52,318 nt of DNA from Candidatus Heimdallarchaeota archaeon. GTDB lineage: Archaea > Asgardarchaeota > Heimdallarchaeia > JABLTI01. A program made the translations under genes and the position numbers. Below the pieces are notes generated by a model. That model was not told where the DNA came from. It was given only the letters and a program-made list of their open reading frames with translations, and searched no databases. Shown here piece by piece: positions 2,241 to 31,121 of the stretch (its first letter is position 1; each line of letters opens with the position of its first letter). The stretch covers positions 1-52,318 of the forward strand of contig JAHLVW010000022.1 in NCBI GenBank assembly GCA_019058275.1. The letters are read 5' to 3'.

Positions 2241-2264
2241 AAACAAGAAAAAAAGAAAGAATTA

Positions 2265-2284: not shown

Positions 2285-2292
2285 AAGTTTTG

Positions 2293-5032: not shown

Positions 5033-5177
5033 TTTAAACCCTCATATATATAAAAATATATGATAATAAACAGACAAATGATTTATAATAAAAGAGTATC
5101 GAAAAAGGACATCTTAATATCTAATATAGCACAAATTTTTTTTGAAAAATTAGATTTGAGAAAAAAAGAAAGAAATG

Positions 5178-5197
5178 GAGACGTTATCTAACGTCTC
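5178..5197 (-). terminator. Hairpin identical to 2265-2284, plus U-rich tract
   Basis: GAGACGTTATCTAACGTCTC 8 nt after the LVIVD-2 stop. Confidence 0.65.
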
Positions 5198-5205
5198 ATG
5201 TTTTA

Positions 5206-7969
5206 CTATCTTGTTACTACCTTGCGTTTTCTTACGACAACTATCACAACAACAATTGCTATTATTAATAGAAGTCCACCACCAGCAATGACATAAGCCC
5301 ACCAAGGTATATTAATTGCTGAGATATCTATATCAAGGTCTACAATATCACTCCAAGAACCTGGTAATCCATAATTGTCAACCGCTCGAACTCTGAAATA
5401 GTATGTTCCACTCGTTAAATCAGAAACTACTTGTGAAAGGTCAGATGTATTCCAACTATCAAATGGTGTAGCAAAGGATGTTTCATTATCAACTTGTAGT
5501 TCATAATGATCAATTGTTCCATCGTCTGTGCTTGCAGTCCAGTTTATCATTACACTGCTTACCTCACTTACATCTCCAGGGTCAGAAAGTGTAGGTTCAC
5601 TTGGAGGTTCGTTGTAATCATAATCAATTTCTATCTCATAAATATGAGAACTTCGATCGCTTGGTCCAGCTATTACTGCATGCCAGCGAAGATCGTTGCC
5701 AGGATTTGCGAATATGTGTTTAACGCCAGGAATGACTGCTTCCCAATGAGTACCAGCATCAGCTGACATGAGATAATTAATGTTGGAACCATCAGGAATA
5801 AAGTCAACAGAATCAAGTGTTGCATTATAAATCATCAAATCTGTGGAATCAATTTCAGTAGATTGTGCTATTTGAGTTCCTGGAATGAAGGTTGCTCCAG
5901 CACTCTCAAAATGACGCAAAATAATCAAAGAGGTTTTGTTTGCAACATACGTGTAATCACCATGCGTTGAAACTTGCAATGCACTTGTAGCATCTGAATA
6001 AGTGCTGATTATTGGGGCAAAATTAACATCAGTGTTATTAACTAAAGATACCCCCTCAAAAGAATCTGCACTAATACAATAGGGACCAAATCCCCATGCA
6101 CCATAAGATTCACCATTTGTCCAAGCAAAAGGAGGGAAGAATGGATTAGTAGGATCTGATAAATTATAAACTATCATCCAATCTTTATCGGATGTATAGG
6201 CTATATCACCATCTACAAATATATCATAAAATTGGGCATCTACTGATTCTGATCCTACTAAGATTTCATTAGCAATATCTGAAATATCATAAACGTAAAG
6301 ACATGTTGTTATGGGACCACCAGCGATATTTTCCACTACATATAAATTAGGACCTTGAACCCAAAGAGCAGTCACATTAGTAAAGATGTCAAAGAAACTA
6401 TAGACTCCAGGAATGTTGTATGGGTCAGTTATATTAAAGATATAAATACCATAAGGTCCATCAGCCACGTAAGCCATGTCACCTGAAACGACAACATCAG
6501 TAGGCATATGTAAGAACAATATTGTCCATCAATTGGATATTTGTGGGATCACTGACATCATAGATACGCAAACCACCACTAGGAAGTCCATAATCAGCAA
6601 CGTATGCATAGTTTCCTCGAACATCTAGCTTTCGGTAGTAGGGATCAACTCCTTCGACAATTTGGTCCAGCAAGATTGGGTAATTTGGATTACTAACATC
6701 TAAAGTATATAATCCGTCTGAACCACCAACAACGTAAGCAATATTTCCTTGAACTCGAACATCTGTAGCATTTAGTGTTGAAAATGGATTATCATACCAC
6801 ATACTTGAAAAGTCACCAACAAAACCAATATGATAAGTATATACACCACTAGCTGTGCCTACAACTAAATCTCCACCATAAAGGTCTAAGTCATAAACAT
6901 AAGGAAGTGGTTGCATCTCAGTTACGAATAGTGGATTAGACGGGTCTGCAACATCTAATACTTGAACACCACCAGTACCATCTGCAACGAAAAGAGTATT
7001 TCCTTGTTTTACCAGACGTCTTGCATTGCCAGGAGTATTATAGCTACCTACTATCGTAGGATTGTTAGGATTTCTAACATCAATTACATGCACACCTTCA
7101 GAACCATCTGCAAGATATGCTAATCCACCATCAACGATAACATCAGTAGCATTTCCTGGAGTATCAACAAATCCATATTCAAATGATCTATGCTTATTGG
7201 CAATATTAAGAACATAGAATCCTTCAAAACTAGCAGCAACATAAGCAATATCTCCTTCAACTTCTAATCCCAATGCTTGATCTGATGTCCAATTATTATT
7301 TATGTTCACCAAATTAGCAGGATCTTCAGCGTCAAGTACTCCAATTGATTTACCATCAGATGCTCCATATTCTGTAAAGTAAACTAAATTCCCCTCAGCA
7401 TCGATATCGGTTACTAGTCCACTAGTAACTATATTATCATACCATCCAATATTGTATGGATCCGTAGCATCATATGTCATAAGAAATTGTGCTGGAGTTA
7501 TAGCAAAATCCTTTCCTACATAAATAACGTCGCCATCTACATCTATAGTCATAGTCCCACTATAAATGTTCATTGTGTCTGTAACTTGTAGGTTATACAT
7601 GTCACTTAAATCAATTATTTTTAAGTCATCTATTGGACTTGCATAATCTAGACATGCAATGTATGCTTTCCTTCCTTGTACTTCCAATCCAGTTACTGGA
7701 TTAGGAGTAGCCAAGAAATCCAATAATTCCCAAGTATAATTTCTTGGTTTTAAAACAGTACCAGATCCCCAACCATAAGCATCTGTAGCACCGCCATCTC
7801 TAAAGGTTGTTGTAGTAAAATCCTCAGTAAAGGTATCAGAACTTTTTACATTTAGGAAGTTACTGTAATTATCAGAAATAGCACTTGCAGGTAAAAATAA
7901 CACCATGGTTATAGGAAATAGTAAAATGACAAAAAGTGCAAAGCACTTCAATAATGCTTTAGAATTCAT
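5206..7969 (-). pseudogene. LVIVD-repeat + FN3 + TM surface protein (paralogue 2), split by a 1-nt frameshift near 6503
   Basis: ORFs 6497-7969 and 5206-6519 are colinear with paralogues 1 and 3. Removing one base from tat-gcc-tac-tga restores ..LTY-A-TDVVVSGD. May be an assembly error. Confidence 0.85.
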
Positions 7970-7994
7970 AATTGTATTACTCTCAATTTAATTT

Positions 7995-8006
7995 TATAAA
8001 AGATAC
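7995..8006 (-). promoter_or_regulatory. TATA-containing element GTATCTTTTATA
   Basis: Identical 12-mer at 10870-10881; both end 26 nt before an ATG. Confidence 0.6.
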
Positions 8007-8068
8007 GATGGGTGATAAAAGATAAAAGGCTTTCGTAGAGATCAAAACAATGGTTAAAATAAAAGAAA

Positions 8069-8091
8069 AAAGATGCTAAGAATGCATCTTT
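8069..8091 (-). terminator. Hairpin AAAGATGC-N7-GCATCTTT plus U tract
   Basis: 8-bp inverted repeat just after the LVIVD-3 stop. Confidence 0.55.
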
Positions 8092-8099
8092 GTGTAAAA

Positions 8100-10844
8100 T
8101 TATCTTGTTGGAGTTCTTTTCTTCCGACGAACGACCAGAGAAATAACTACTATTAAGACCACTATTACTAGTAATCCTCCGCCTATAATAAGACCAATCC
8201 ATAAAGTAGCTAGTTTAACAGTTGTTGATTCAACATTGCTCCAATCGCTTACTACACCATAATTGTCAACAGCCCGTACCCGGAAGAAGAATGTTCCTTT
8301 GCCTAAACCGAATACCGATTTACTAGTTCCTTGTGCAGTCATATTCTTTAGAATAGTACCAAATGTATTCGAATCACTTATTTGAAGTTCATAATGGTCA
8401 ACATTATCGTCAGTATCGTTACTTTCACTCCATTCTAACTTGAAAATACCAGTGAACTTCTCAGCACCTAATGCAGTAAGTGTAGGAATAGAAGGTGAAT
8501 AATTAATAGTATAATCTATTGACATAGCATAAATGTGAACACTGCGATCTTTTGGACCAGTAATGACTACGCGCCAACGTAAATCATAACCTGAATCATT
8601 GAAGACATGAGCTACTCCTAGAGTTACAACTTCCCAAGTTGTTCCACCGTCTACAGACATGGAATATTCAACAGTAGTTCCAGCTGGAACGTAATGTCCA
8701 ACATCAAGAGTTGCTTCAGAAACTAAACCGGGAACATTAACCTTCAAAGATTGAGCAGTTGTTGTATCAGCAATATAAGTATCTCCTGCGCTTTCAAAGT
8801 GACGGAGAATAACCAAACTTGTTTTGTTAGCTACGTAAGTGTAATCCCCATGAGTTGTTACTTGTAACGCATTTGTAGCATTTGGATAGATGCTCATTCT
8901 GGGATCAATAGCATATGGATTATTACAATTGACCATTGACACACCCTCATCCGAATCTGCACTGAGACAGTAAGGACCAAATCCCCAAACACCAAGAGAA
9001 TTTCCAAAAGTGAAAGTAGTGAAATAGGGACCAACTGGATTAGTAACATTGTAAAGTATCATCCATGCTTTATCTGCTGTATACGCCACATCACCATCAA
9101 CATATATATCATTGAATTGGGCATCTACACTTGCTGATCCTATAAAAACAGGAGCAGCGAGATTGGTAATGTCATAGATATAGAGACTATTTACTATTGG
9201 ACCACCTGGTATATTATCTACCACGTACAAATGCACTCCTTGTACCCAAATAGCAGTAAGATTCGCAGTACCAATAAAATTATTCGAAAGAACAACAGGG
9301 ACATATGGATTAGAGATATTTAATATAGCAAAACCTGTTGTAAAGGATACGAACTCCAATTCGCCTATAGAGAACATATCTTCTAATAATCCTCCAATAG
9401 TAAAGCTCCTAAATTCAATATCGGAGGGATCTGAAATATCAAAGAGATAGATACCACTGTCATCAACACAGTGAGCGAAATTTCCATCAACATCTAGTTT
9501 CTTAAAACTTTCAGATGGAGCTATTGTAAAGTGATCAAGAAGAATCGGATTGTTTGGATCTTGTACATTTAATGTATAAAATCCATCAGGACCTCCAGCA
9601 ATATAAGCGATATCTCCTTTAACTCTGACATCCCAAACTTGTAGGTCTGAAAAGGTATTTTCGTAAGCATAGTGCTTCAGATTTGTCACTCCTAAACCAG
9701 CGCAAATGTTGAAAGTGTAGACACCTTCTTCTGTACCTACTACTAGGATTCCTCCATAGAGTTCCACACAGTAAGTATACTGTAGTGAACTATCAGAAAC
9801 ATATGAAGGATTATTCGGATCAGCAACATCTAAAACTAGTACACCACCAAGTCCGTCTGCGACAAACAAAGTTTTACCTTGTAAGACCAAATCTATAGCA
9901 TTTCCTGGAGTATCATATTGTCCCAATATTGCTATGTTAGTAGGATCTCTTACATCAATAGTAAATACACCTGCATCCCCTGCTGCAACATAAGCTATAC
10001 CACCATCAACAATAACATCAGTAACGTTACCAGATAATGCTAAATGATCACTCTCAACAGGATGGTGTTTGTTAGTAGCGTTTAAAACGTAGAATCCCTC
10101 ATCGCTAGCTGCAACGTAAACGATTTGTCCTTGAACAGCAAGTCCTAAAGCTTTATTTGAACCCCAATCACAAGTCACTAAATCTAGAAACAAGGGATCT
10201 TCAGTATTAAGAATTCGTAAAGATTTTCCACCAGTAGCATTATAGTTTACAAAGTAAATTAAATGCCCATTTGCTTCTATATCGGTGATAGCTCCATCTA
10301 GCAATCCCCACCCATTTGGATTTGTTGGATTGAAAGGATCAGAGATATCAAAAACAACAATGGAATAACCAACAACTGATACTTGTCCAGCATAGAGATA
10401 ATCTCCATTAGCTTCTACAGCCAACGTATTAATCCATGAATTTTCTCCACCTGTTTTTTTAATATCTGATGAATTTTCAAGATTCAGAATTGTAAGTGAA
10501 TCAATACCAGCTGTTGTGTTATACACACTCGCATAGGCTTTTTTGCCTTGAACATCTAGATCAACTACTGGATCTTCAGTTTCAAAATAGTCCAATTGCG
10601 ACCAAGAAAAGTTTCTTGTATTTGTAATTGTTCCAGTTCCCCATCCCCAAGCATCTGTTTCTCCAGCATCCATGTAAGTATCATTTGTAAAGTCTTCTAC
10701 AAAGATTTCATTTGCCATTTTTGTAATTCCTCCATATGAAGGAACTACTGCATTCGTTGAATTAGTCATTGTTAAACAAGTTGTTAAAGGGAGAATAATG
10801 ATTAGGAATAAGGAAATTAAAAATTGTTTATTACTAATTTTCAT
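8100..10844 (-). CDS. LVIVD-repeat + FN3 + TM surface protein (paralogue 3)
   Basis: Same architecture, tail RRKKRTPTR. Start placed at MKISNK (10844) from the signal peptide and promoter spacing; the ORF track starts at 10883. Confidence 0.9.
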   Translation of the reverse strand: MKISNKQFLISLFLIIILPLTTCLTMTNSTNAVVPSYGGITKMANEIFVEDFTNDTYMDAGETDAWGWGTGTITNTRNFSWSQLDYFETEDPVVDLDVQGKKAYASVYNTTAGIDSLTILNLENSSDIKKTGGENSWINTLAVEANGDYLYAGQVSVVGYSIVVFDISDPFNPTNPNGWGLLDGAITDIEANGHLIYFVNYNATGGKSLRILNTEDPLFLDLVTCDWGSNKALGLAVQGQIVYVAASDEGFYVLNATNKHHPVESDHLALSGNVTDVIVDGGIAYVAAGDAGVFTIDVRDPTNIAILGQYDTPGNAIDLVLQGKTLFVADGLGGVLVLDVADPNNPSYVSDSSLQYTYCVELYGGILVVGTEEGVYTFNICAGLGVTNLKHYAYENTFSDLQVWDVRVKGDIAYIAGGPDGFYTLNVQDPNNPILLDHFTIAPSESFKKLDVDGNFAHCVDDSGIYLFDISDPSDIEFRSFTIGGLLEDMFSIGELEFVSFTTGFAILNISNPYVPVVLSNNFIGTANLTAIWVQGVHLYVVDNIPGGPIVNSLYIYDITNLAAPVFIGSASVDAQFNDIYVDGDVAYTADKAWMILYNVTNPVGPYFTTFTFGNSLGVWGFGPYCLSADSDEGVSMVNCNNPYAIDPRMSIYPNATNALQVTTHGDYTYVANKTSLVILRHFESAGDTYIADTTTAQSLKVNVPGLVSEATLDVGHYVPAGTTVEYSMSVDGGTTWEVVTLGVAHVFNDSGYDLRWRVVITGPKDRSVHIYAMSIDYTINYSPSIPTLTALGAEKFTGIFKLEWSESNDTDDNVDHYELQISDSNTFGTILKNMTAQGTSKSVFGLGKGTFFFRVRAVDNYGVVSDWSNVESTTVKLATLWIGLIIGGGLLVIVVLIVVISLVVRRKKRTPTR

Positions 10845-10869
10845 TTTTAATTCAACCATAAAATAACTG

Positions 10870-10881
10870 TATAAAAGATAC
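10870..10881 (-). promoter_or_regulatory. TATA-containing element GTATCTTTTATA
   Basis: Matches 7995-8006 with the same spacing to the ATG. Confidence 0.6.
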
Positions 10882-11078
10882 ATTAGATAATAGATGATAA
10901 AAAATTATTGCACTTACCTTAAAAGGAACTATTGATTTTAGTTCCCTTTTAATAAAGACAAGATTTTTTACTATCTAAGATAATAATGAAACACCTAAAC
11001 GGTAAATTCAAATGAGGGATAATAATTAGCTCTGATGATACTAGTATTTATACAGCAGCTGCTCGAAAAGCTTTTGTT

Positions 11079-12176: not shown

Positions 12177-13979
12177 ATGAGTAATACTAAACTATTAGTA
12201 GTAAGATATTTGTCTATTCGGAAGGGAGTGATTGTAACGCCCTCATTAAAGTACACAGTTTCTCTACTCAAAAAATACATGAATCCCTACCTTCCTCAGG
12301 TTATGCTCCTAGCTGTGCTGTTATTAATCCTCAGTGGCATAGACATTCTTAATCCTCAAATCATTCGTTACTATATCGAAGCAGTCAACGAACCAGTATT
12401 AAATACCAGACTTATACTAATAGCTTCAATAGTGTACATTATCGTAAATCTAATTCATAGAGTATTATTTGTAATAATAAGATGGATAAGTCAAAATTTA
12501 GCTTGGTCAACAACAAATGATTTACGTATTGATCTAACAAGACACTGTATTAATCTTGATATGAAGTTTCACAATCAGAGAAAAACAGGGGAAATGATTG
12601 AGCGAATTGATGGTGATGCTTCAACTCTCTCAGAATTTTTCAGCACATTCATTATCCATTTTTTAGGTAGTTTCTTACTATTAGCTGGAATTTTAATTGC
12701 AGTTTTTATTGAGAGCTGGATATATGGGTTAATCTTTTTAGGATTTACGATTATTGCTCTGGTAGCTTTGTATTTAGTCAGAAAGGTTGCTTCACCACTT
12801 TGGAAAAAAGTACGAGAATCAACTACTGCCCTTTTTGGAGTAATAGAAGAAAATATCTCTGGGTTTGAGGATATTCGAGCAAATGGCGCAGATGAGTTCT
12901 TAATGAGACGATTTCATGAAAGCGCTCAAACAGATTTCAGAAATAAAAGCAAAGCAATGATTGTTTCAAGGGTTTATTATGCAGTGAACATCCTAATGGG
13001 TGCATTACTCAATATAGGAATTTTAGTAGCGAGTTACTTTCTAGCAGATCGTCTTGGAATAGATGGCGGAGTATTGTTTTTGCTCCTTTCCTATGGAAAT
13101 AACATATTAAGACCACTACGATTAATACTGTGGCAACTAGAACAAATGCAAAATTCGTTAGCGAATATTGATAGAATTAAAGAATGGTTTGATATTAAAT
13201 CAGAAATTACTGATGAGGGTAATTTACTATTCCCAGATGAAGACATAAATCTTGAATTTGATACCCTGGATTTTGGCTATTCTGAGGAATTAGTTCTAAA
13301 GAACATCAATTTCAATATTGAGCCTGGAAAGAAACTAGGGTTGGTTGGTCGAACAGGGAGTGGAAAAACAACCATAGCAAGATTGATTTTTAGATTATAT
13401 GATCCAAACAATGGAAAAATCAAAATAAATGGACTAAACTCAAAGAAATTCCCATTAAGTGAACTTAGGAAAAACGTTGCTTATGTTACCCAAGAAGTAG
13501 AGCTGTTTAAAGCATCAATAAAAGATAATATTACCTTTTTCGATTACGATATGACAGATGAACAAGTACTTCGTGTATTAGAAGATTTAGGACTAAAGAA
13601 ATGGTATGATCAATTGCCAAAAGGTTTGGAAACGGTAATCTTTTCAGAAGATCTCGGGTTATCAGCTGGTGAAGAACAACTCTTGGCTTTAACTCGAGCA
13701 TTTCTTAAGAATCCCAAACTAGTCATTCTAGACGAAGCATCATCAAGGTTAGATCCTGCAACTGAAAAACAAGTTGATTTAGCTTTGGAAAAATTGCTGG
13801 AAGGAAGAAGTGCAATAATTATTGCTCATAGATTAGCAACCTTGCAGAAAGTTGATGACATTCTAATTTTAGAGAAGGGAGAAATTGTTGAATATGGTTC
13901 CAGAGCAGAGCTAGTCAAGAATCCAAACTCTCATTTCTCGAAATTGTTACAGCAAGGAATACAGGAGGTCTTGACTTGA
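12177..13979 (+). CDS. ABC exporter, TMD+NBD subunit A (heterodimer)
   Basis: TM domain, Walker A GRTGSGKT, degenerate signature LSAGE, Walker B ILDEA, IAHR. Confidence 0.95.
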   Translation: MSNTKLLVVRYLSIRKGVIVTPSLKYTVSLLKKYMNPYLPQVMLLAVLLLILSGIDILNPQIIRYYIEAVNEPVLNTRLILIASIVYIIVNLIHRVLFVIIRWISQNLAWSTTNDLRIDLTRHCINLDMKFHNQRKTGEMIERIDGDASTLSEFFSTFIIHFLGSFLLLAGILIAVFIESWIYGLIFLGFTIIALVALYLVRKVASPLWKKVRESTTALFGVIEENISGFEDIRANGADEFLMRRFHESAQTDFRNKSKAMIVSRVYYAVNILMGALLNIGILVASYFLADRLGIDGGVLFLLLSYGNNILRPLRLILWQLEQMQNSLANIDRIKEWFDIKSEITDEGNLLFPDEDINLEFDTLDFGYSEELVLKNINFNIEPGKKLGLVGRTGSGKTTIARLIFRLYDPNNGKIKINGLNSKKFPLSELRKNVAYVTQEVELFKASIKDNITFFDYDMTDEQVLRVLEDLGLKKWYDQLPKGLETVIFSEDLGLSAGEEQLLALTRAFLKNPKLVILDEASSRLDPATEKQVDLALEKLLEGRSAIIIAHRLATLQKVDDILILEKGEIVEYGSRAELVKNPNSHFSKLLQQGIQEVLT

Positions 13980-15772
13980 AAGTTTGGAACCAAGCAGGTA
14001 AACTAATCAGATTTAGAATAGGTTACTTTATTGGAACCTTCATTTCGACCTTATTATGGTTGCTTGGTAGATTTGGTATTAGTTTTGGTGTTCAAGAAAT
14101 AATTGATACTCTAATTGGAGAAGATACTTTCTTCAGTCTAGACATTAAGACATTATTCATTATAATACCTTTTACATTCCTAGCGACATTTCTATTTGGA
14201 TCATTGTTAGATATCCTCTTCTGGTTGTTCTACATTTCAGGCCAAGTGTTGCTTAGAAGAAACATTATGAGAGGATTACTTAGAAAACCGGGTGCTCAAG
14301 CACTCCCAGATACTTCTGGAGAGGCAATCTCGAGATTTAGAGGCGATGTCGATAATGCAGTAAGGTTGTCTTATACGCTGTCAATAAGATTTGGTTTTGT
14401 TGTTTATACTGGAATAACTCTAAGCTATATGTTTTACATAAGCTGGAAAGCAACAAGTCTGATATTCGTACCATTTATGCTTATATTAGCAGTAGGATTA
14501 ACAGCTAGAAGACGAATTGATAAATTAAGGAAGAAGCGAAGAAGAGCTACTGCAGAAGTAACAGATACTCTTGGGAAAATATTCGGATCAATTCAAACAT
14601 TCAAAGTTACTTGTAAAGAAGAGAATATCTTGAACTATTTTGATACTAAATGCCAAACAAGAAAGAAAGCAATTGTAAAAGAAATGGTATTCATTGCGAT
14701 TATTGATTCAATATATCTATTTTCAATATCTCTAGGAATGGGAACAATCCTCTTGCTAATAGGACCAGCTATGAATATTGGAACATTTACAGTTGGTAAT
14801 CTATACTTCTTTCAAACACAGTTGTGGTGGATAGGTGATTTCTTGTGGATGTTGGGAGATATGATACCAGTATACCAGCAAGCAAAAGTATCCTATGAAC
14901 GAATGCTAAAGCTAATTCAAAACCAAGAAGAAACAGTTAATGCTGAAGAAATCGTTGAATCAGGACCAATATATGAATGGATAGATTATCCTCCGTATCA
15001 ACCGATCCTTCGATCGGAAAAAGATAAGATAGCTCTCTTATCAGCTAAGAATTTATCATTTAGCTATCCTGGAACTGATAAGGGAATTTCAGATATTGAC
15101 ATTGAAATCCCTCGAGGTTCTGTTACTGTAGTAACAGGAAGAATAGGTTCAGGAAAAACAACATTACTCAGAGCAATTTTAGGATTAGTCCAAAAAGATC
15201 AAGGAGATATTACTTGGAATGGTGAATTAGTCACAGATCCAGATCAATTTATGATTCCTCCTAGAGCAGCATATACACCACAAATACCTTACTTGTTCAG
15301 TGATTCACTGAAAAACAATATCATGCTTAATATTTTAGAAGAAACTGCTGATATAGATAAGGCAGTGGAGTTAGCAGTTTTTGAACGGGAAGTTAATGGT
15401 TTTGTAGAAAACTATGACACAATCGTTGGACCGAAAGGAGTAAGGCTTTCCGGAGGACAAAAGCAACGATTAGCTGCTGCTAGAATGTTCATTCGAAAAC
15501 CTGAACTACTTGTGTTTGATGATTTATCAAGTGCACTTGATGTCGAAACAGAGCACAAACTTTGGGAACGAATGTTCTCAAGTGGTGCAGAAATCACTTG
15601 TTTAGCTGTTTCTCACCGTCCTATGGCACTTAAGAGAGCAGACATTGTTATAGTTCTAAAGAATGGTAAAATAGACGCTCAAGGCAGACTTCAAGATTTA
15701 CTTAGAACAAACGAGGAAATGCAAAAACTGTGGGAAGGAGATTTAGAAGATAATAACAGTGAAGAAAAATAG
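13976..15772 (+). CDS. ABC exporter, TMD+NBD subunit B (heterodimer)
   Basis: 4-nt overlap with subunit A, SD AGGAGG, GRIGSGKT, LSGGQ, Walker B FDD (catalytic E to D), consistent with one degenerate ATP site. Confidence 0.95.
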   Translation: MKVWNQAGKLIRFRIGYFIGTFISTLLWLLGRFGISFGVQEIIDTLIGEDTFFSLDIKTLFIIIPFTFLATFLFGSLLDILFWLFYISGQVLLRRNIMRGLLRKPGAQALPDTSGEAISRFRGDVDNAVRLSYTLSIRFGFVVYTGITLSYMFYISWKATSLIFVPFMLILAVGLTARRRIDKLRKKRRRATAEVTDTLGKIFGSIQTFKVTCKEENILNYFDTKCQTRKKAIVKEMVFIAIIDSIYLFSISLGMGTILLLIGPAMNIGTFTVGNLYFFQTQLWWIGDFLWMLGDMIPVYQQAKVSYERMLKLIQNQEETVNAEEIVESGPIYEWIDYPPYQPILRSEKDKIALLSAKNLSFSYPGTDKGISDIDIEIPRGSVTVVTGRIGSGKTTLLRAILGLVQKDQGDITWNGELVTDPDQFMIPPRAAYTPQIPYLFSDSLKNNIMLNILEETADIDKAVELAVFEREVNGFVENYDTIVGPKGVRLSGGQKQRLAAARMFIRKPELLVFDDLSSALDVETEHKLWERMFSSGAEITCLAVSHRPMALKRADIVIVLKNGKIDAQGRLQDLLRTNEEMQKLWEGDLEDNNSEEK

Positions 15773-15821
15773 TTTTGATTAAATAAATACCTAAACATAT
15801 TATTGTCGAAGCACTCTAAGC

Positions 15822-15873
15822 TAGATATAAATAGTCATTCACTTTTTTTCATATACAGAACAAGCTTTGCTTG
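15822..15873 (+). promoter_or_regulatory. TATA-like TAGATATAAATAG plus palindrome CAAGC-N3-GCTTG upstream of degV-1
   Basis: Both motifs recur at 17772-17822 with near-identical spacing to the ATG (91 vs 90 nt). Confidence 0.65.
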
Positions 15874-15912
15874 ATTTCTAACTATTACTATCTATATGGA
15901 GCTTTACGCTAT

Positions 15913-16806
15913 ATGAACAAAGTAGCTATAGTAACCGATGGTGTTTGTGACATTTCACAAGCAATGATCGATGAATATGATATTACTTCTGCACCTTTTC
16001 GAATTTTTTTTGGTGATGAGGTGTATAGAACCTGGTATAATGAAAAAAGCACGATAAGTTTGGAAGAATTTTGTTCTAAACTCGCTACAACTACAAAGGA
16101 TAATTTTCCTAAAACTTCTATTCCTTCTCCTGGTGAAATTGCCTTAGCGTACGAAGAAGCACTTAAAAAAGCTGACTCAATAATTGGCATATTTTTAAGT
16201 GCAGCAATGTCTGGGATAGTTCAAGCTGCTCAAAATGCTGCTAAAACTATATTTCCTGATAAAGATATAACTATCTTTGACTCAAAACACACAATGTCAG
16301 GTACAGGTATCCAAGCTCTTGAAGCAGCTAAAATGGCAAAAGCAGGAAAAAGCAAAGAGGAAATCCTTGCTAGACTGAAATCACTTAATCCTCGAGTACG
16401 AACTATATTTGTTATGAATGATTTGAATTACTTGTACAAAGGAGGAAGGATTGGTCGAGCTAAGAAATTGCTAGGCTCTGCATTTAATGTTATACCAACA
16501 GTTCACATGCAAGATGGAATAATTAACCCACTAAAGGCATTTAAAGGAAATAATGCTCTTTCAGAAAACCTAAATGCTTTTTGTGCAAAAATTATGGACC
16601 AATGTGAAACAAATGATGTTATTATAACACACATTAATCACCACGAAATTACTCAAAAAATGTACAAAACGATGAAAGAAACAAACAGCAATGGTGTAAA
16701 TATACATTATTCTGAAGCAAGCCCTATTATGGGAGTCTATACAGGTCCTAAATCAATATGTATAAGCTATATTGGTAACTTTGACAAAAGTTGGTTGATG
16801 AAGTAA
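15913..16806 (+). CDS. DegV/FakB family fatty-acid-binding protein (copy 1)
   Basis: KVAIVTD, PKTS.PSPGE, LS..MSG, DSK, YLYKGGRIG, G.YTGP. Start set at MNKV by comparison with copy 2. Confidence 0.93.
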   Translation: MNKVAIVTDGVCDISQAMIDEYDITSAPFRIFFGDEVYRTWYNEKSTISLEEFCSKLATTTKDNFPKTSIPSPGEIALAYEEALKKADSIIGIFLSAAMSGIVQAAQNAAKTIFPDKDITIFDSKHTMSGTGIQALEAAKMAKAGKSKEEILARLKSLNPRVRTIFVMNDLNYLYKGGRIGRAKKLLGSAFNVIPTVHMQDGIINPLKAFKGNNALSENLNAFCAKIMDQCETNDVIITHINHHEITQKMYKTMKETNSNGVNIHYSEASPIMGVYTGPKSICISYIGNFDKSWLMK

Positions 16807-16892
16807 TCTATAGAATCATCGACAATCTCAAAAATTGAGTAGGTAAAGAAGTCAATATTTAGAGTTAACACTCCAAATTTCTTTAACCTACT

Positions 16893-17603
16893 TCAGCTAT
16901 TTTTTGTAAACCAATTAGTTGAACCAATGCTTGACTTAGTGAAGATATTTTTCAACACTGATGAAAACAATGCCAAAACCATTACTGCAACTAATAACCC
17001 TTGTGTTAAATGGACAAAACCATTTATTCCTAATACCCAATCTGAATGAATACCACCCCAAGGAGGGCAAAATGGAATAAATAAAGCTGCGGGTATACTC
17101 AATAGAACGCCAATTGCACCTGATACTCTGCCTGATTTCTTAAACAATCCTGCAGGTATAATGAGACCAATCCCACATGCCATGTAGACTAGTGGATTCA
17201 TATACAATAAAGCACCCATGAAAACACCCATTCCTTGCCCACCTTTAAATCCTAACCAAATGGGGTAGTTATGACCTAAGATAGCGAGAGCCGGTCCTGA
17301 AATAGACATGATTGTGTATAATGGATTTCTACCATCTAAAGACACAAAATGTGGAAGTGAATAGATCTTATCAATTAAGAAAATTGTAAGGGAACCTTTG
17401 AAAATATCAAGTAGCATGATTGGCAAACCTATTGCAACACCAAAAGTCTTGATGGAATTAACTGCACCTGGATTGCCAGTATTATGCTCACGTAAATCTA
17501 TACCTTTAGCTAAACGTCCTATCCAAACAGAAAAAGGTATAGAGCCAAATAAATATGACCCTAAACAAGTTAGAGTAATCCATAATATGTCTATAGCTTG
17601 CAT
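16893..17603 (-). CDS. PlsY-like (acyl-phosphate:G3P acyltransferase family) membrane protein, divergent (copy 1)
   Basis: YLFGSIP, DLR...TGNPGAVN, DIFKG, GHNYP...FKGGQG; motif-3 His not evident. Confidence 0.88.
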   Translation of the reverse strand: MQAIDILWITLTCLGSYLFGSIPFSVWIGRLAKGIDLREHNTGNPGAVNSIKTFGVAIGLPIMLLDIFKGSLTIFLIDKIYSLPHFVSLDGRNPLYTIMSISGPALAILGHNYPIWLGFKGGQGMGVFMGALLYMNPLVYMACGIGLIIPAGLFKKSGRVSGAIGVLLSIPAALFIPFCPPWGGIHSDWVLGINGFVHLTQGLLVAVMVLALFSSVLKNIFTKSSIGSTNWFTKNS

Positions 17604-17771
17604 ATTTATCAAATCGTTAGAAATTGGTGAAATATAATTTTAGATTAATCACTTCATAATTTGTTTCCTTTTATTTCTTACTCATGTAATCACTAAGTGA
17701 ATCATTCGCTCATTTTCAGCACCTTTACTAAAACACTTATTTATACATAATGTTGTTGAAGCGTTATGAGT

Positions 17772-17822
17772 TAGATATAAATAGGTACCTACATTCTACT
17801 TATTCAGAACAAGCTTAGCTTG
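17772..17822 (+). promoter_or_regulatory. TATA-like TAGATATAAATAG plus palindrome CAAGC-N3-GCTTG upstream of degV-2
   Basis: Conserved with 15822-15873. Confidence 0.65.
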
Positions 17823-17861
17823 ATTTCCAACTATTAGAATCTATATGGTGTTTTATTTGCT

Positions 17862-18755
17862 ATGAGAAAAGTAGCTATTGTAACTGATGGTGTTTGTGAT
17901 CTCTCGCAAGCAATTATCGATGAATATGAAATATCAACTATACCCTATCGTATTTTTTTTGGTAATGAGGTATATAGAATTTGGCATAACGAAAAGAGCA
18001 CGTTAAGTGTAGATGAGTTTGTTGCCAAGTTAGCAAAGTCCACAAAAGAAACATTTCCAAAAACTTCTATGCCTTCTCCTGGTGAAATTGCAGGAGTTTT
18101 TGATGAAGCATTAAAGATAGCTGATACCTTAATTGTCATTCTTTTAAGTACAGGATTATCAGGTGTTGTTCAGGTAGCTCGAACTGTAGCTAATACTAAA
18201 TATCCTGATAAAGATATTACGATCTTTGATTCCAAACATACAATGGTTGGTACAGGTATCCAAGCTTTAGAAGCAGCAAAAATGGCCAAAGAAGGAAAAA
18301 GTAAGGAAGAAATTCTTAATAGACTAGAATCAATCAATCCAAGAGTTAGAACTATTTTAGTCATGAATGATTTGGATTACTTGTATAAAGGTGGACGAAT
18401 AGGTCGAGCTAAAAAACTAATGGGTTTAGCTTTTAATGTTATACCAGTTGTTCAACTGAAGGATGCGGTTATTACTCCTGTTGGATCATTTAAAGGAAAC
18501 AAAAAACTAACAGAAGGATTGAAAACTTTCGGTAAAAAAATCCTTGAACATTGTGAAACAAATGATGTTTTTATAACTCATATTAATCATCATGAAACAG
18601 CTCAAGAAGTCTATAATGTAATGAATGAGAACAATAGTAATGGCATTCAAATCCACTATGGTTTAGCTGGCTCAATTTTAGGTGTCTATACTGGTCCAAA
18701 AACAATTTGCATTAGTTATATTGGCAATTGGGATGAGAAGTGGTTATTTAAGTAA
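17862..18755 (+). CDS. DegV/FakB family fatty-acid-binding protein (copy 2)
   Basis: Same motifs as copy 1; colinear paralogue. Confidence 0.93.
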   Translation: MRKVAIVTDGVCDLSQAIIDEYEISTIPYRIFFGNEVYRIWHNEKSTLSVDEFVAKLAKSTKETFPKTSMPSPGEIAGVFDEALKIADTLIVILLSTGLSGVVQVARTVANTKYPDKDITIFDSKHTMVGTGIQALEAAKMAKEGKSKEEILNRLESINPRVRTILVMNDLDYLYKGGRIGRAKKLMGLAFNVIPVVQLKDAVITPVGSFKGNKKLTEGLKTFGKKILEHCETNDVFITHINHHETAQEVYNVMNENNSNGIQIHYGLAGSILGVYTGPKTICISYIGNWDEKWLFK

Positions 18756-18778
18756 TCAGTAGGTAAAAATTAAATGTG

Positions 18779-18794
18779 AGGAGTAAAGACTCCT
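18779..18794. terminator. Short hairpin AGGAGT-AAAG-ACTCCT between convergent degV-2 and plsY-2
   Basis: 6-bp inverted repeat in a 44-nt convergent gap. Confidence 0.4.
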
Positions 18795-18799
18795 TATAT

Positions 18800-19507
18800 T
18801 TAACCTACTTCTGTCATTTTTTCTATACCGATCTTTGATTTAACGATTACATTTTTTAGCATTGAAGAAAGTAACACTAAACTCATTGCTAAAACAACTA
18901 GACCTTGAGTAACATAGAGAAAACCACTTCCACCTGCTACCCAATCGTTAAGGATGTGAGCCCATGGAGGTGCAAGAGGGAGGAAGAGTCCATCTGGTAT
19001 ACATAATATAACGACAATTAGACCAGCAATTCTATTTGATAATTTCAAAACAGCAACAAGTAAAATATATGTAATTGCATAGAAAGCAAAGACAATAGGA
19101 TTCACATAAAACAATGCTCCCATAAAAACTGACAATCCTTGCCCACCACTAAAATTTATGTATATAGAATAATTATGACCTAATATAGCTAGAGCTGGTC
19201 CAATAATACACATACTTGTAAAAAAGAGGTTTGATCCATTTTCATTTACAAAATATGGTCGTGAGTAAATTTGGTCAATGACTAGAATTGTTATAAATCC
19301 TTTAAGGATATCAAGAAATAAAGCGGTTAAGCCTATTGGTAGACCAAAGGTTCTGATAGCATTAAATCCTCCGGGATTTCCAGTGTGATGTTTCCTGAGA
19401 TCATCACCTTTGAATAATCGACCAAACAAAACTGTGAAAGGTATTGATCCTATTAGATAGGAACCAATACAAGTTAAACTAATCCATAAAATATTGATTG
19501 CTGACAT
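18800..19507 (-). CDS. PlsY-like membrane protein, divergent (copy 2)
   Basis: YLIGSIP, DLR..HTGNPGGFNAIR, DILKG, GHNYS...FSGGQG. Confidence 0.88.
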   Translation of the reverse strand: MSAINILWISLTCIGSYLIGSIPFTVLFGRLFKGDDLRKHHTGNPGGFNAIRTFGLPIGLTALFLDILKGFITILVIDQIYSRPYFVNENGSNLFFTSMCIIGPALAILGHNYSIYINFSGGQGLSVFMGALFYVNPIVFAFYAITYILLVAVLKLSNRIAGLIVVILCIPDGLFLPLAPPWAHILNDWVAGGSGFLYVTQGLVVLAMSLVLLSSMLKNVIVKSKIGIEKMTEVG

Positions 19508-23001: not shown

Positions 23002-24469
23002 ATGATGAAAACATTCAATTTGCAAATTGCAAAAGAAAGATTAGACGGGCTTGATACCTATCTCGAAGAAGCGATAGTTAAAAGAAAAGTTCTTGGTTTA
23101 GGGATTTCTATAGTTGTTGATAATGAGATCATTTATTCCAAGGGATTTGGTTTTCGCGATTTGAAGAAGCAAGAAAAAACGATAAAGGATACAGTATTCC
23201 CAATAGGTTCTTCAACAAAATCGTTTACATCAACAGCCATAGCAATGTTAGTAGAAGACGGCTTACTTGAATGGGATAAACCAGTAAAAAACTACTGCTC
23301 AGAATTTAAATTCAAAGATTCATACATAAATGAGAATGTAACCATTCAAGATATTCTAGGGCATAGAACAGCATTACCTGGACACGATTTCGTTTGGTTT
23401 TGAACCAGAAATAACCTATATGGATAAAATACAGTACTTAGATACCACTAGACCATTCAGAACGACATTTCAATACTGTAACATTCTCTATTGTTCTGCA
23501 TCAGAATTAATTGAAAAATTAACAGGAAAGGGCTATGCGGAATTTGTCCAAGAGAGAATACTAAATCCTTTAGATATGAAAAAGACATTTTTCTCAAGGA
23601 AAGCTGTAAAAAAAGAAGATGATTGTGCTACTTTATACAAAGAAGAGAATGATGAAATCGTTGAGAGTACAGATCATGATCTTAAGCTGGCGAAAGGATC
23701 GGGAAGTATAAGTTCAACAGCAGAGGATATGGCAAAATTTCTACTTTTCCACTTAAATAAAGGAAAGATAAATGGTGAAGAACTAGTATCTGAATCAAAT
23801 ATACTTAAAACTCATTTACCAACAACAATCATAAGATCATGCTCAATGCTAAATAACTTGTATCCCGAAGAAAGAATAGTTCATTCACAAAGTTATGTAC
23901 ATGGATGGATTTGTGAAACATATCGAGGAAACAGAATAAATTACCATGCAGGTAGTTATCAAGGATGTTGCCACATAGCTTGTTTCCTACCAGACCTAAA
24001 AATAGGCATTGATATCTTAACGAATACACTCGAGAGTTTTCTAGGACATATACTTCATTATCACATTATAGATAGGTTGTTAGGACTAGAACAAATAGAT
24101 TACTTGGCAATCGGCGAAACGATTATGACTTCAATAAACGAGAATAAGAAGAAAAGAGAAGAAAAATCAGAGAAAGAAAGAATAAAGAACACGAAACATT
24201 CTCACAAACTTGAAGATTATATTGGGACATATCAACACCCAGCATACTCAGAATTCGAGTTCAAGCTTGAAAACAATAAATTAATCGTTAATCTTGGAAT
24301 ACATACAAGTGAAGTAACTCATTATCATTATGAAACTTTTGAAATCAAGCTGGATTTATTTGATATTTCAATTTTAGCTACTTTTGAGACAAATCAAAAA
24401 GGAATAGTACACGGATTGCGAATACAAACAGAACCAGCGTTAGAACCAGCATTTTTCAAGAAGGTTTAA
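23002..24469 (+). pseudogene. Serine hydrolase (beta-lactamase class C / AmpC-like) with C-terminal DUF3471-like domain, frameshifted near 23400
   Basis: SSTK (SxxK) in ORF 23002-23403; YCN and HAG in 23420-24469. Deleting one T from tggttttgaa restores WF-EPEITY-MDKIQYL. Confidence 0.85.
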
Positions 24470-25537: not shown

Positions 25538-28241
25538 TTAACCCAACCCTTTCTTACGTCTAAATAATATTGATACAGCTGTTAAGGAAGCTGCGGTACC
25601 AACATTTACAATCACTAAAGTACTAATAATCCCTTTCAAGGCTGGCGAAAGCTGAGAAGTATCATTAGTTTCAGTTGGTGTTGGTGAATGATCTATTTCT
25701 GGGTAATCATTGGGATCATTTGGATTTGTATTGTATAAAATTTCAGTAGAATCAATAAACAAATCGTTATCCGAATCAGGATTTAATGGATTTGTATGAA
25801 CGTAACCTGTGGCATTTGCTCCAGGATTTGATGGTGTATAAATGCCTAAAACCTCGTTACCGTCTTCAAGCAAATCATCATCTGTATCGGCATCATTGGG
25901 GTCAGTATTGTGATTGTATTCTTTTATGTTGTAAAAATTGTCATTATCTGGATCATAAATGGAATCATCAATTAAAGGATTAAGATTATTATCTACTTCC
26001 CACCCATCGGGCATACCATCAGAGTCTGTATCGGGATTATTTGGATTAGTATTTGCTAGGTATTCATCAATGTTAACAAGGTTATCTGTATCAGGATCAT
26101 CTGTAGAATCATCTGATAAAGGATTCAGTGAATATTCTACTTCCCATCCATCATCCATACCATCATTATCGGTATCAAAATCAGCTGGATCAGTTAGATA
26201 GTAATACACTTCTTCACTATCAATTAGTCCATCAGAATCTGAATCATGATTATTAGTATCAGTATAGTAGGTTGTATCCTCTAAATAATCAGACAGGTTA
26301 TCTCCATCATTATCTAAAATGATGATTTCTACTCCTTGTGAAAAGGATGCAACATAAGCAATGCCATCAACTACCTCAAGTTCTTGACTCATTCCGCCAT
26401 CATCATATTGTCCAATTACTATTGGAGTAGTAGGATCACTACAGTTATAGATGACTAAACCTTGTCCAAAATGAGTAGCATAAAGGAATTCGTCTTCGGC
26501 AGAAACACAGTAGGTATAATTGAATTCTTGATAATCTCCAACCTCAACAATATCAGATACATTACTAACGTCAAAGATTCTTATTCCAAAATCCAAATCA
26601 GCCAAGTAGCAATAATCTCCAGAAACAGTGACATCTCTAATATTATACATACTCGCAATGGAATCTGTTATTGTTGGATTGTTGATATCAGTAATATTTA
26701 GAATAGTTAATCCTTCGCTTAAATCAGCTACAAACGCATAATTTCCCCTAACATAAGTACTATATGGGTAATCATCTTCTAAAACTAGTTTAATAAGAGA
26801 GATATTTTGAGTATCTGTAATATTATAAATAAAAATACCATCATAACCTGCTGATAGGAAGGCATAGTTATTATGTATACAGACATTAATAATGTATTCT
26901 GATAATAAGATTACATTAACTACTTCTGGATTGCTTGGATTACTTACATCAACAACTCCTAAGTAAGTACTGTTAATTATCAAATAGGCTAAATTATTCC
27001 GAACAGCTATAGATGTTATAATAGATATCCCAGGAAATTCTATGTTTCCCATTAGTATAGTTTCTAAAGGATTGCTAACATCAAGAATATAAAGACCCTT
27101 TTGAGCATTAGCTAAATAAGCAAAACCATTTTCTACATAAACATCAACAATATCTCCGCCAAAATCAAAGGTAGTTACATAAGATGGATTGTAGGGATCT
27201 AATCCATTAACAACTATCAAACCTTTACCAAGATCTGTTAGGAAAATAGAATCACCACTTGCCTTTATACTTCTTTGGGCAATAAAATCTAGAGGGATTT
27301 CACCTAATTTTTCTGGTTTAGAAAGGTTGTTAACAGAAATAACCTCGACTATACCATTTCCGAGATTATATAGTAGATCATCCTTTTTATCGATGCGATA
27401 AGAATAAGCTCCAAAATTGGTTTCATTAATTAATGTTGGATTTAAGACATCAGTAAAATTAACTATTTGAACAGAATTGTCAGCTGATAAGTAACCAATA
27501 TTCCCATCAATAACTAGATCAGAAAACAGAATTAGCTCCATAATAGGTGGTAATTTGGTAAGTAGTTAAGGGATCAGAAACATTCATCACTCGTAAATAA
27601 AAACTACTTTGCATCATTACATAGGCATAACTACCATTAGCAACGACATTGGTTACTCTATCACCAAAATCGTACCTAAAAAGATGTTGTGGATCCGAAA
27701 CATCAAAGATATCAAGACCATAGTTATAATTAGCAACAAAAGCTAAATTTCCAAGAACATCTACACTATAACAGTAGTAGTTATCTTCTTTGTAAACACC
27801 AACTTTGGTGATGTTTTCAGGATTAGAGATATCAAGTATAGCGAATCCCTCACCATAGAAACCAGTATAAACATAATCTCCCTGAACACATAAATCATTA
27901 GCATATCCTTCACCTTCGTATTGTCCTATAAAGGTTGGAGTAGATAGATTACTTATATCCATAATTACCAATCCCCCATATTTAGCTGCTATATAAGCAT
28001 AATCACCTTGAATATCAACTTCATATGGCATGCCATAGCTATCATCCCAAGAATTAAGTTCAGAGCAACCAAAACCCGTGGAATATAAACCAGAGGAAAC
28101 ATCCTTCGAGTTGTTTATATGTTTGGAATCTAATCTGAGATTTTCTTTACAAGTCTCACTCGAAACTTCAGAAAAAGTTGGATTGATAAGTGAGAAAATT
28201 AAACAAATAATTACTATAGTTTTGTATGTTCCTTTATGCAA
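25538..28241 (-). pseudogene. LVIVD-repeat + thrombospondin-3-like (DxDxDG) stalk + TM surface protein, frameshifted near 27525
   Basis: ORFs 27519-28256 and 25538-27541 join as ..YGANS/L-FSDLVIDG. Likely TTG start at 28241 after SD GGAGGA. Tail FRRKKGLG. Confidence 0.85.
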
Positions 28242-28418
28242 TACATTGTCCTCCAATTTTTAGAAATAGAAAAACTAGCTATACTTAGGCATCTTCCCCT
28301 AAAAATTTTCTTGAAATAAAGGAACAAATATAGATTAAGTAAAAGGTAATTTTTAAGTGAAATGTGAGGAATTATCTGACTAAAACTCTCATTTTATATT
28401 AAAAAAAAATAAAGAAGA

Positions 28419-28442
28419 ATACACTAAAACAAATTAGTGTAT
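28419..28442 (-). terminator. Hairpin ATACACTAA-N6-TTAGTGTAT plus U tract
   Basis: Identical copy at 31070-31093 behind the paralogue. Confidence 0.65.
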
Positions 28443-28470
28443 CAATTCTAAAGATCATAATATCATTTTA

Positions 28471-30294: not shown

Positions 30295-30416
30295 AGTTTA
30301 TCACCCTCCTGGGATATAATATGACTTGTATATAATTTAACAATGAAGCATTTAGATTTTTCTCTAATATTTCAGTAAAAGGAATATACACAAATTTATA
30401 TCCTCAATGCTTTTTT
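30295..30416 (-). repeat. Near-identical 5' non-coding block (copy A)
   Basis: Differs from 32796-32916 at only 3 positions (2 substitutions, 1 indel). Confidence 0.9.
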
Positions 30417-30419
30417 GTC

Positions 30420-30952
30420 GCCTTTTCAATTCCAATAACCGTTTTATCTGAATCTGCTTTCAATAATCCTTTACTAGAATCCAAGATAACTTACTGATTT
30501 ATCCCAAGGATCCTTGATAATAGCACATTTACCAATTATAATTTCAAAAGGACTTGATATGGCTTTCCTATCTGCTTTTGTGCTTTTCTTTATAGAGGTA
30601 TAATTAATAGTTAAATAACTACTTCTCATAGCTGCAGTCGAAACAACAGAACGAATAGAATAACAGGAGAAAAATTACTGAAAGTAATCCAAAGTTTAAC
30701 TTCGAATTAAAGACGTAATCGGAAAATTTTATCAGTAATTTTAATTATTTCATTAGTCTTTTCACTTAATTCATCTTTATCAAGTTCAGTTTGGTTATCT
30801 AAACTTTCTTTTAATTCCAAGAACCTTTTCCTCTCTTTTTCATATTTTTCAAAAACATTTAACTCATGTAAAACATTCTGAAAAACATTCATTTCAGGTC
30901 ACATTCCGATTAGATATTCATATTCAAAATAAAATTCAATGGATTATTTCAT
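30420..30952 (-). pseudogene. Degraded gene fragments between the FG-GAP paralogues
   Basis: Short interrupted frames including the 61-aa ORF 30707-30892, with stops upstream. Confidence 0.35.
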
Positions 30953-31069
30953 GGTGCCAATGTAAATGCTAATACATTTGAAGAAAAAAACATTTCAAAA
31001 TAAATAAAGAAAAAATCTGAAAATCTCTTCTTCAAGAAGTAAAAATTTTTATTAAAAAAATAAAGAAGA

Positions 31070-31093
31070 ATACACTAAAACAAATTAGTGTAT
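31070..31093 (-). terminator. Hairpin ATACACTAA-N6-TTAGTGTAT plus U tract
   Basis: Identical to 28419-28442. Confidence 0.65.
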
Positions 31094-31121
31094 CAGTATT
31101 AAGAATCATATCGTTATTTTA

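Follow-up and report, generated by a model that had tools for sequence, protein, structure and literature searches.

Paired DegV (FakB-type) and PlsY-like genes form a lineage-specific module in Heimdallarchaeia and may serve acyl transfer to an acceptor other than glycerol-3-phosphate

Introduction

The FakB proteins of the Firmicute fatty acid kinase (S. aureus FakB1 and FakB2, S. suis FakB2) consist of a full-length DegV/EDD domain, and in S. suis FakB2 the carboxylate of the fatty acid is held by Thr61, Ser93, Arg170 and His264 (PMC10848957). Several FakB proteins per FakA kinase are normal in bacteria (PMC10848957), and in S. aureus the FakA_N and FakA_L domains together (FakA_NL) are enough for kinase activity (PMC9136124). 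For the acyltransferase PlsY, the reference is the seven-helix protein of Aquifex aeolicus (aaPlsY; PDB 5XJ5-5XJ9, Pfam PF02660). Its clamp for the phosphate of glycerol-3-phosphate (G3P) is formed by Ser35, Arg45, Lys104 and Asn180, plus His177, and acyl-phosphate is held in a 'phosphate hole' made of His92, the backbone of the Loop3 GGxG and the hydroxyl of Thr41 (PMC5700162). This hydroxyl binds the acyl-phosphate carbonyl and loss of Thr41 is severe (PMC5700162). Here, we analyze a stretch of 52,318 nucleotides (contig JAHLVW010000022.1 of assembly GCA_019058275.1, hereafter the window) from a Candidatus Heimdallarchaeota archaeon, in which two genes for DegV/FakB-family proteins alternate with two genes for PlsY-like proteins.

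How an archaeal host gained bacterial-type membranes is an open problem in eukaryote origins. PlsY and PlsC homologues were reportedly described in Asgard archaea by Villanueva in 2017. Later reports likewise describe such bacterial-type ester-lipid genes in Asgard archaea, Heimdallarchaeota included (Coleman 2019, Manoharan 2019, Wu 2022; PMC6431249, PMC6737245, PMC8813620). The homologues were discounted partly because no archaeal source of acyl-phosphate (PlsX) was known (PMC6431249), and PMC8813620 notes that PlsC is absent from closed Heimdallarchaeum genomes.

Results

The locus is a tandem duplicate of a convergent DegV/PlsY-like unit

The two gene pairs occupy the following positions of the window:

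15913-16806, plus strand: DegV1, FakB-type fatty-acid-binding family, 297 amino acids (aa), Tyr replacing the carboxylate-binding His
16893-17612, minus strand: PlsY-like 1, 239 aa, PlsY fold, retaining His92 and GGxG of the acyl-phosphate hole, without the G3P clamp
17613-17861, no strand: intergenic region between the divergent PlsY-like 1 and DegV2 genes
17862-18755, plus strand: DegV2, 297 aa, 69% identity to DegV1
18800-19507, minus strand: PlsY-like 2, 235 aa, 57% identity to PlsY-like 1

A first-pass annotation, made from the letters of the window, had described this order (degV> <plsY degV> <plsY) with all four open reading frames (ORFs) intact and had named the two protein families; the ORF listing and the profile searches with PF02645 and PF02660 confirm both points. 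Because the two DegV proteins are 69% identical and the two PlsY-like proteins 57% identical, the locus arose by tandem duplication of a convergent DegV> <PlsY-like pair. The ratio of nonsynonymous to synonymous substitution rates (dN/dS, Nei-Gojobori), calculated against orthologues and between the paralogues, is 0.12-0.22 for the four genes (0.12-0.20 for DegV1 and 0.13-0.19 for PlsY-like 1). All four are thus under purifying selection and none is decaying.

The genome is a bin of 4.12 Mb in 118 contigs, 92.8% complete and with an estimated contamination of 6.8%. This estimate, together with protein families that are typical of bacteria, could suggest a contig of bacterial origin that contaminates the bin, or an artefact of the assembly. 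However, the GC content of the contig agrees with that of the bin, and the locus, including two ABC transporter genes upstream (ABC-ABC-DegV-PlsY-DegV-PlsY), is found in identical order on a 1,551,900-bp (1.55-Mb) contig of GCA_050009915.1. Down to 40% identity, the nearest homologues of the DegV and PlsY-like proteins come almost all from Heimdall/Asgard metagenome-assembled genomes (MAGs), the nearest homologue of PlsY-like 1 (89% identical) being encoded by Candidatus Heimdallarchaeota archaeon CSMAG_1263, and two closed genomes of the sister family hold the same protein families (9 DegV and 3 PlsY each). Other PlsY-like loci of the bin share contig C115 with the archaeal 16S gene or neighbour Ftr on contig C52. 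The host is therefore an archaeon of the class Heimdallarchaeia, as the first-pass annotation had thought probable; contamination and misassembly are excluded for practical purposes, their remaining chance being negligible.

The DegV proteins retain most of the carboxylate-binding residues of FakB

Both window DegVs match PF02645 (cut-off 27 bits) over a full-length EDD domain, with 233 bits for DegV1 and 217 bits for DegV2, and TIGR00762 with 246 and 233 bits, above the cut-off of 99.7 bits. The FakB1 equivalog model NF038249, whose cut-off is 350 bits, gives them 144 and 132 bits, as expected of a distant, non-orthologous member. DegV1 matches FakB/DegV structures in the PDB with E-values down to 4.6e-33, and the two proteins are about 30-36% identical to Bacillota DegV. 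The equivalents of Thr61, Ser93 and Arg170 are retained in both and are thus common to the window proteins and Firmicute FakB, whereas the equivalent of His264 is a Tyr in both window DegVs as well as in three related paralogues. On this sequence evidence the proteins belong to the DegV/FakB family, and they are predicted to bind fatty acid and to take part in phosphotransfer.

The PlsY-like proteins have the PlsY fold and a changed G3P site

PlsY-like 1 and PlsY-like 2 score 112 and 105 bits with PF02660 (G3P_acyltransf, cut-off 24.1 bits). With the NCBI equivalog model for PlsY (TIGR00023, cut-off 137.2 bits) they reach 95.4 and 101.7 bits and both remain under the cut-off. An AlphaFold (AF2) model of PlsY-like 1 (pLDDT 91.4) was searched with Foldseek; the only PDB matches were aaPlsY structures (5XJ5-5XJ8), with TM-scores of 0.73-0.74 over about 218 columns, i.e., near full length, and the predicted fold is the same seven-helix fold. 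Residues were read from alignments to Aquifex PlsY, a Priestia PlsY and all paralogues, with roles taken from PMC5700162:

His92 and GGxG loop (acyl-phosphate 'phosphate hole'): kept in copy 1, kept in copy 2
Ser35 (G3P phosphate clamp): Thr in copy 1, Thr in copy 2
Arg45 (G3P phosphate clamp): Lys in copy 1, Arg (kept) in copy 2
Lys104 (G3P phosphate clamp): Gln in copy 1, Gln in copy 2
Asn180 and His177 (motif 3, G3P binding): absent in copy 1, absent in copy 2
Thr41 (acyl-phosphate carbonyl binding): Val in copy 1, Phe in copy 2

Besides His92 and the GGxG loop, both copies share with bacterial PlsY the residues N37 and N42 and the D..KG motif. In contrast, Ser35 and Lys104 are replaced in both copies and Arg45 in copy 1 only, Asn180 and His177 are gone together with motif 3, and Thr41 has become Val or Phe.

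Both proteins belong to a subfamily. A database search returned about 42 clusters of the window type at 40-89% identity, followed by a sharp fall in score to bacterial PlsY. In the tree, a check that the first-pass annotation had proposed, the window-type proteins form a clade found in Heimdall genomes only (SH-aLRT 99), and the subfamily is confined to Heimdallarchaeia. PlsY-like 1 is nearer to orthologues of other species than to PlsY-like 2, so the duplication is older than those species. In an alignment of 40 subfamily members N47, G49, D69, K72, G73, G113, H114, G124, G125 and G127 are invariant, and K158, R162 and a PPW motif are newly conserved relative to bacterial PlsY; the positions of the former clamp residues Ser35 and Arg45 are variable.

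The first-pass annotation had taken these proteins to acylate G3P. Since they score below the TIGR00023 cut-off and lack residues of the G3P clamp (PMC5700162), we judge from their sequences that they are not canonical G3P acyltransferases. The active site looks remodelled rather than dead or decayed, because H92, the glycine loop and N37/N42 are invariant in the 40 members and the new K/R/PPW motif is conserved among them.

Pairing of the two families is conserved and far above chance

The two copies in the window, which had first been regarded as a special pair, belong to a larger expansion. The genome holds about 16 intact and at least 5 disrupted DegV loci (about 20 in all) and 12 PlsY-like loci (10 intact, 2 disrupted). 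Five DegV/PlsY pairs are adjacent, compared to about 0.2 estimated by chance if 20 and 12 genes were scattered over 4.1 Mb, so adjacency of the two families is far above chance. An all-against-all comparison of the neighbours of about 30 DegV/PlsY loci found no recurrent neighbour except one ABC homologue. Simple co-duplication of DegV and PlsY-like genes as fixed pairs was considered and rejected, the DegV next to the PlsY-like gene of contig C70 being from a different DegV clade.

Among 151 Asgard genomes, DegV is essentially confined to the class Heimdallarchaeia. The family of the host (own family) has at least 15 DegV matches in each of the two genomes searched; the sister family has 9-15 in genomes that are at least 86% complete, the two closed ones included, and 3 in a single bin of 76% completeness; elsewhere in the class the families have 0-5. 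FakA, DegV and PlsY(-like) proteins co-occur genome by genome across the class, and in another family, which has a single copy of each gene, three genomes have fakA, degV and plsY side by side. The convergent pair of the window is kept in four other species of the genus (G151, G153, G154 and G162) at 45-90% protein identity, and three out of five more distant members of the PlsY-like subfamily have a DegV neighbour. The synteny that the first-pass annotation had suggested looking for across Asgard genomes is therefore found, and of its two-gene module the pairing stands, in at least five species of the genus and in distant members, whereas a canonical PlsY function for it does not. DegV and PlsY-like together are a conserved, lineage-specific two-gene module of Heimdallarchaeia.

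Two further arrangements of PlsY-domain genes were observed. In GCA_054383995.1 (L103:2810-3406) a gene of the EBP family (PF05241, emopamil-binding) lies directly upstream of a window-type PlsY-like gene. In the Asgard family f13, whose genomes are without DegV, there are one to three ORFs with a PlsY domain, about 400 aa long and in some genomes in tandem (e.g., G083:C106:5555-8769); these have twice the normal length, so the PlsY domain is fused to something else.

A FakA-type kinase and a canonical PlsY are encoded together elsewhere in the genome

Profile searches of the window agree with the first-pass annotation that it holds no FakA, PlsX or PlsC. Outside the window, contig C69 encodes a single FakA-type protein of 313 aa (Dak2 145 bits, FakA-like_M 77 bits), in which an alignment with full-length FakA (7W7H) recovers DGDTG, the catalytic Cys and HxH. 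It has the FakA_N and FakA_L parts and is predicted to be an active kinase. The C-terminal domain is absent, and the protein scores 330 bits with TIGR03599 against a cut-off of 396. In bacteria, this C-terminal domain docks FakB. The gene belongs to a fakA-degV-plsY operon, and the last gene of this operon is the sole canonical PlsY of the genome (155.7 bits versus the 137.2-bit cut-off), with all clamp residues kept.

In this assembly, the DegV gene of the operon is interrupted by an in-frame TAA. Several DegV and PlsY-like paralogues, this one included, contain single in-frame stops (TAA, TGA, TAG) or frameshifts (C69:79138-79971, C70:18907-19767, C80:37021-37869, C34:5608-6222, C52:56289-57856, C11:34924-35627), which reflect either turnover in a large family or assembly errors. 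A fourth type of PlsY-like gene (C109:2972-6472, L032) sits between a gene of the 3-beta-HSD/epimerase family and a choline/ethanolamine-kinase-like phosphotransferase, possibly a head-group context.

Both systems, the Firmicute one and that of Heimdallarchaeia, have multiple FakB/DegV paralogues per genome. The latter differs in having about 20 of them, in an archaeon, with Tyr in place of the carboxylate His in the window clade, a partner kinase without FakA_C, and genes that are physically paired with PlsY-like genes. We know of no DegV genes paired with PlsY-like genes in the bacterial Fak literature.

The host family lacks detectable G1PDH and encodes a type I fatty-acid synthase-like enzyme

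No convincing match was obtained in this genome for PlsX (PF02504), PlsC (PF01553), the GpsA C-domain (PF07479), GGGPS (PF01884) or G1PDH (PF13685, NF002022). GlpK was not found in the genome either, its sole FGGY kinase scoring as xylulokinase, and neither was a bona fide CdsA (PF01148), the weak matches falling on the CarS gene. From the genome-wide search that the first-pass annotation had called for (FakA, PlsX, PlsC, GlpK and GpsA), FakA was thus recovered, on C69, and the other four were not. CarS and HMG-CoA reductase were found in this genome, and GDPD is present in 12 of 12 own-family genomes. Across the class, three of these enzymes are distributed as follows (genomes with a match):

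G1PDH (NF002022): own family 0/12, sister family 18/18, rest of the class 31/31
GGGPS (PF01884): own family 0/12, sister family 3/18 (one strong, two marginal), rest of the class 25/31
PlsC-type (PF01553): own family 0/12, sister family 0/18, one further family 0/1, the other four families 30/30

A tblastn search with the G1PDH of the sister family matched only generic Fe-alcohol dehydrogenases, which supports the absence of G1PDH. The absence of GGGPS is not trusted as a real loss: the sister family has G1PDH and CarS yet barely any PF01884 match, so a divergent enzyme may escape the profile. Because neither G1PDH nor a recognisable GGGPS was detected among the 12 own-family genomes, the isoprenoid ether lipids that the first-pass annotation had expected of the host are doubtful in this family. 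PlsC-type enzymes are missing from exactly those families that are rich in DegV and PlsY-like genes, and our PF01553 search reproduces the published absence of PlsC from closed Heimdallarchaeum genomes (PMC8813620).

Contig C22 (42255-53000; L080:4256-15001) encodes a megasynthase of 3581 aa resembling type I fatty-acid synthase (FAS) or polyketide synthase (PKS), with the domains ER(NMO)-KS-AT-ACP-KR-DH-PPTase, flanked by biotin carboxylase and carboxyltransferase (acetyl-CoA carboxylase) genes. The megasynthase is present in 12 of 12 own-family genomes, 17 of 18 sister-family genomes and three further families, and is essentially absent from the family with single-copy fakA-degV-plsY. In a closed genome of the sister family (G074, C1:560000-579999, L083) a PlsY-like gene is embedded in the FAS cluster, in the order PlsY-like, biotin protein ligase, carboxyltransferase, 3515-aa megasynthase, alpha/beta-hydrolase, BCCP. 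A Heimdall PKS with KS domains like those of polyunsaturated fatty acid (PUFA) synthesis was described earlier as a biosynthetic gene cluster, with no connection made to lipids (PMC7472256).

Upstream regions and neighbouring genes

The remaining features of the locus and its surroundings are:

15773-15912, plus strand: conserved DegV1 upstream region, with TATA-like ATATAAATA and palindrome CAAGCTTTGCTTG at 15861-15873
about 17723-17861: conserved DegV2 upstream block, with palindrome CAAGCTTAGCTTG at 17810-17822
12177-15772, plus strand: two ABCB/MsbA-like half-transporter genes (Pfam ABC_membrane and ABC_tran), context only
23002-23403 and 23420-24469, plus strand: beta-lactamase-fold/DUF3471 gene split into two adjacent ORFs that cover PF00144 positions 4-109 and 127-313, probably by a frameshift or nonsense break
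37000-43301, minus strand: five aldo/keto reductase paralogues in a row, of which four carry a fused 4Fe-4S dicluster domain, accompanied by a pyruvate-kinase-C-like gene and genes for an FMN reductase and a short-chain dehydrogenase/reductase (SDR)
2-10883 and 25538-32795: arrays of very large proteins (LVIVD-repeat, FG-GAP/beta-propeller and TSP3-repeat), likely surface proteins, which dominate the flanks of the locus

The first-pass annotation had reported conserved upstream motifs for the cassette. This holds for the DegV genes, whose upstream blocks of about 148 bp are 81% identical, and does not extend to the PlsY-like genes, whose upstream regions show no conservation between the two copies. 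As the DegV upstream regions align up to the ATG, and both proteins are then 297 aa long, DegV1 starts with the ATG at 15913 rather than with the TTG at 15871. The upstream blocks share the TATA-like ATATAAATA and a 13-bp palindrome, CAAGCTTnGCTTG, and a genome-wide search for the palindrome returned the two window sites only. The idea of a regulon was accordingly rejected, and the palindrome is part of a duplicated promoter or leader, not a shared operator. A sigma-70 promoter scan gave sites no more numerous than in shuffled sequence, and the sigma-70 model is inapplicable to archaea. Scans of the window for tRNA genes and Rfam families gave no matches.

The ABC gene pair sits directly upstream of DegV1, and a homologue of its second gene adjoins another DegV on contig C70; the link to the module is uncertain. 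In the relative G151 (90% identical) the ABC genes are not upstream of DegV1. The pair was therefore rejected as a part of the module and is treated as context only.

Discussion

Taken at about an even chance, our reading of the module is that its FakB-type carriers pass acyl-phosphate on to acyltransferases derived from PlsY, whose acceptor is something other than G3P. More specifically, a fatty acid, whether scavenged or a product of the type I FAS-like megasynthase, would be bound by DegV and phosphorylated there to acyl-phosphate by the single FakA_N+L kinase of C69. DegV would then carry the acyl-phosphate to its neighbouring PlsY-like partner, which would move the acyl group to the other acceptor. 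The canonical PlsY of C69 would perform G3P acylation and the diverged paralogues would perform other acylations. Ligand binding, phosphotransfer, delivery between neighbours and the identity of the acceptor are the steps that we infer. One candidate role of the PlsY-like proteins is the second (sn-2, PlsC-like) acylation, since PlsC-type enzymes were not found and the families without PlsC have extra PlsY-like copies.

A number of observations weigh against this reading, whose steps are read from sequence and predicted structure. The genes of each pair are convergent and hence not co-transcribed, two of the five distant members of the PlsY-like subfamily have no DegV neighbour, and the foreign clade of the C70 DegV means that the pairs were not simply co-duplicated. 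With Val or Phe in place of T41, even the use of acyl-phosphate is uncertain. The kinase, as judged from its sequence, is without the FakB-docking domain, and the DegV gene of its operon is interrupted in this assembly. The gene context of the PlsY-like loci indicates no acceptor, and the complementarity between PlsC and PlsY-like genes may rest on a single evolutionary event or loss.

Other explanations were weighed on the same evidence. The PlsY-like proteins might no longer be acyltransferases at all and instead serve as a membrane dock at which the DegV carrier loads or unloads fatty acid, as an acyl-phosphate hydrolase, or as a lipid-binding or transport protein. Loss of the G3P site along with T41 of the donor site would fit such a role, as would the conserved pairing with a soluble carrier, which has to come to the membrane, and the ABC exporter genes adjoining two DegV loci. 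Yet H92, the glycine loop and N37/N42 are invariant in 40 diverged members, which have acquired the K/R/PPW motif, and dN/dS is about 0.13-0.22; we regard this explanation as rather unlikely. It is clearly improbable that the window proteins are ordinary PlsY acylating G3P (or glycerol-1-phosphate, G1P), with cassettes that differ only in chain-length preference. They are clear PF02660 members with the PlsY fold, H92 and the GGxG loop, bacterial PlsY accepts both stereoisomers of glycerol-phosphate (PMC13400652), and S35T retains 17% activity in aaPlsY (PMC5700162). Against this stand the scores below the equivalog cut-off, the clamp positions that are unconserved within the subfamily, and the fully canonical PlsY present elsewhere in the genome. 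In addition, K104Q, the loss of H177 and N180, T41V/F and, in copy 1, R45K hit key residues, at which single mutations each cost at least 75-90% of aaPlsY activity (PMC5700162).

The doubt may also be directed at the DegV side: the DegVs could act outside the Fak cycle as sensors or buffers of fatty acids or lipids, and their adjacency to PlsY-like genes would then reflect shared regulation or history rather than a transfer of substrate. A single FakA, itself without the docking domain, for about 20 DegV genes would agree with this, and so would the His-to-Tyr replacement in the window clade and the fact that most DegV paralogues are scattered singletons with unrelated neighbours. However, T61, S93 and R170 are conserved, FakA, DegV and PlsY are found in the same genomes and, in several lineages, in one operon, and more than one FakB per FakA is the normal state in bacteria (PMC10848957). 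We give this explanation a small chance only.

Compared with the earlier Asgard reports, the FakA/FakB source of acyl-phosphate, the expansions of DegV and of PlsY-like genes, the G3P clamp being lost from most PlsY paralogues, the link to a type I FAS cluster and the family-wide lack of G1PDH were not found in the accessible parts of those reports. In the literature that could be searched, which is not proof for the wider literature, no paper was found on FakA or DegV as Asgard genes; the sole paper with both words (DegV/FakA and Asgard) uses them in separate contexts, and no report was found of the expansions, of the clamp-less subfamily or of the lack of G1PDH in the family.

To the question of how an archaeal host could gain bacterial-type membranes, this analysis adds a candidate source of acyl-phosphate, and possibly of fatty acid, in the FakA/FakB system and the linked type I FAS cluster. 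It also adds evidence that most PlsY paralogues of the lineage make up a new subfamily of enzymes whose acceptor site is altered, and one family in which G1PDH was not detected in any of the 12 genomes searched. With a named lineage and clonable proteins, archaeal ester-lipid synthesis becomes directly testable.

A more far-reaching proposal, which we consider unlikely, is that this Heimdallarchaeial family makes fatty-acyl glycerolipids instead of G1P ether lipids. In four steps, the type I FAS-like megasynthase would supply free fatty acid, FakA_N+L with the many FakBs would make acyl-phosphate, the canonical PlsY would acylate G3P supplied by GDPD-type scavenging, and the radiated clamp-less PlsY-like proteins, the two window copies among them, would do the acylations of bacterial PlsC. 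The acylation steps would need neither soluble acyl carrier protein (ACP) nor CoA thioesters. If this proposal is true, the family would be a living archaeal lineage, near the stem of the eukaryotes, that has crossed the lipid divide in part or completely.

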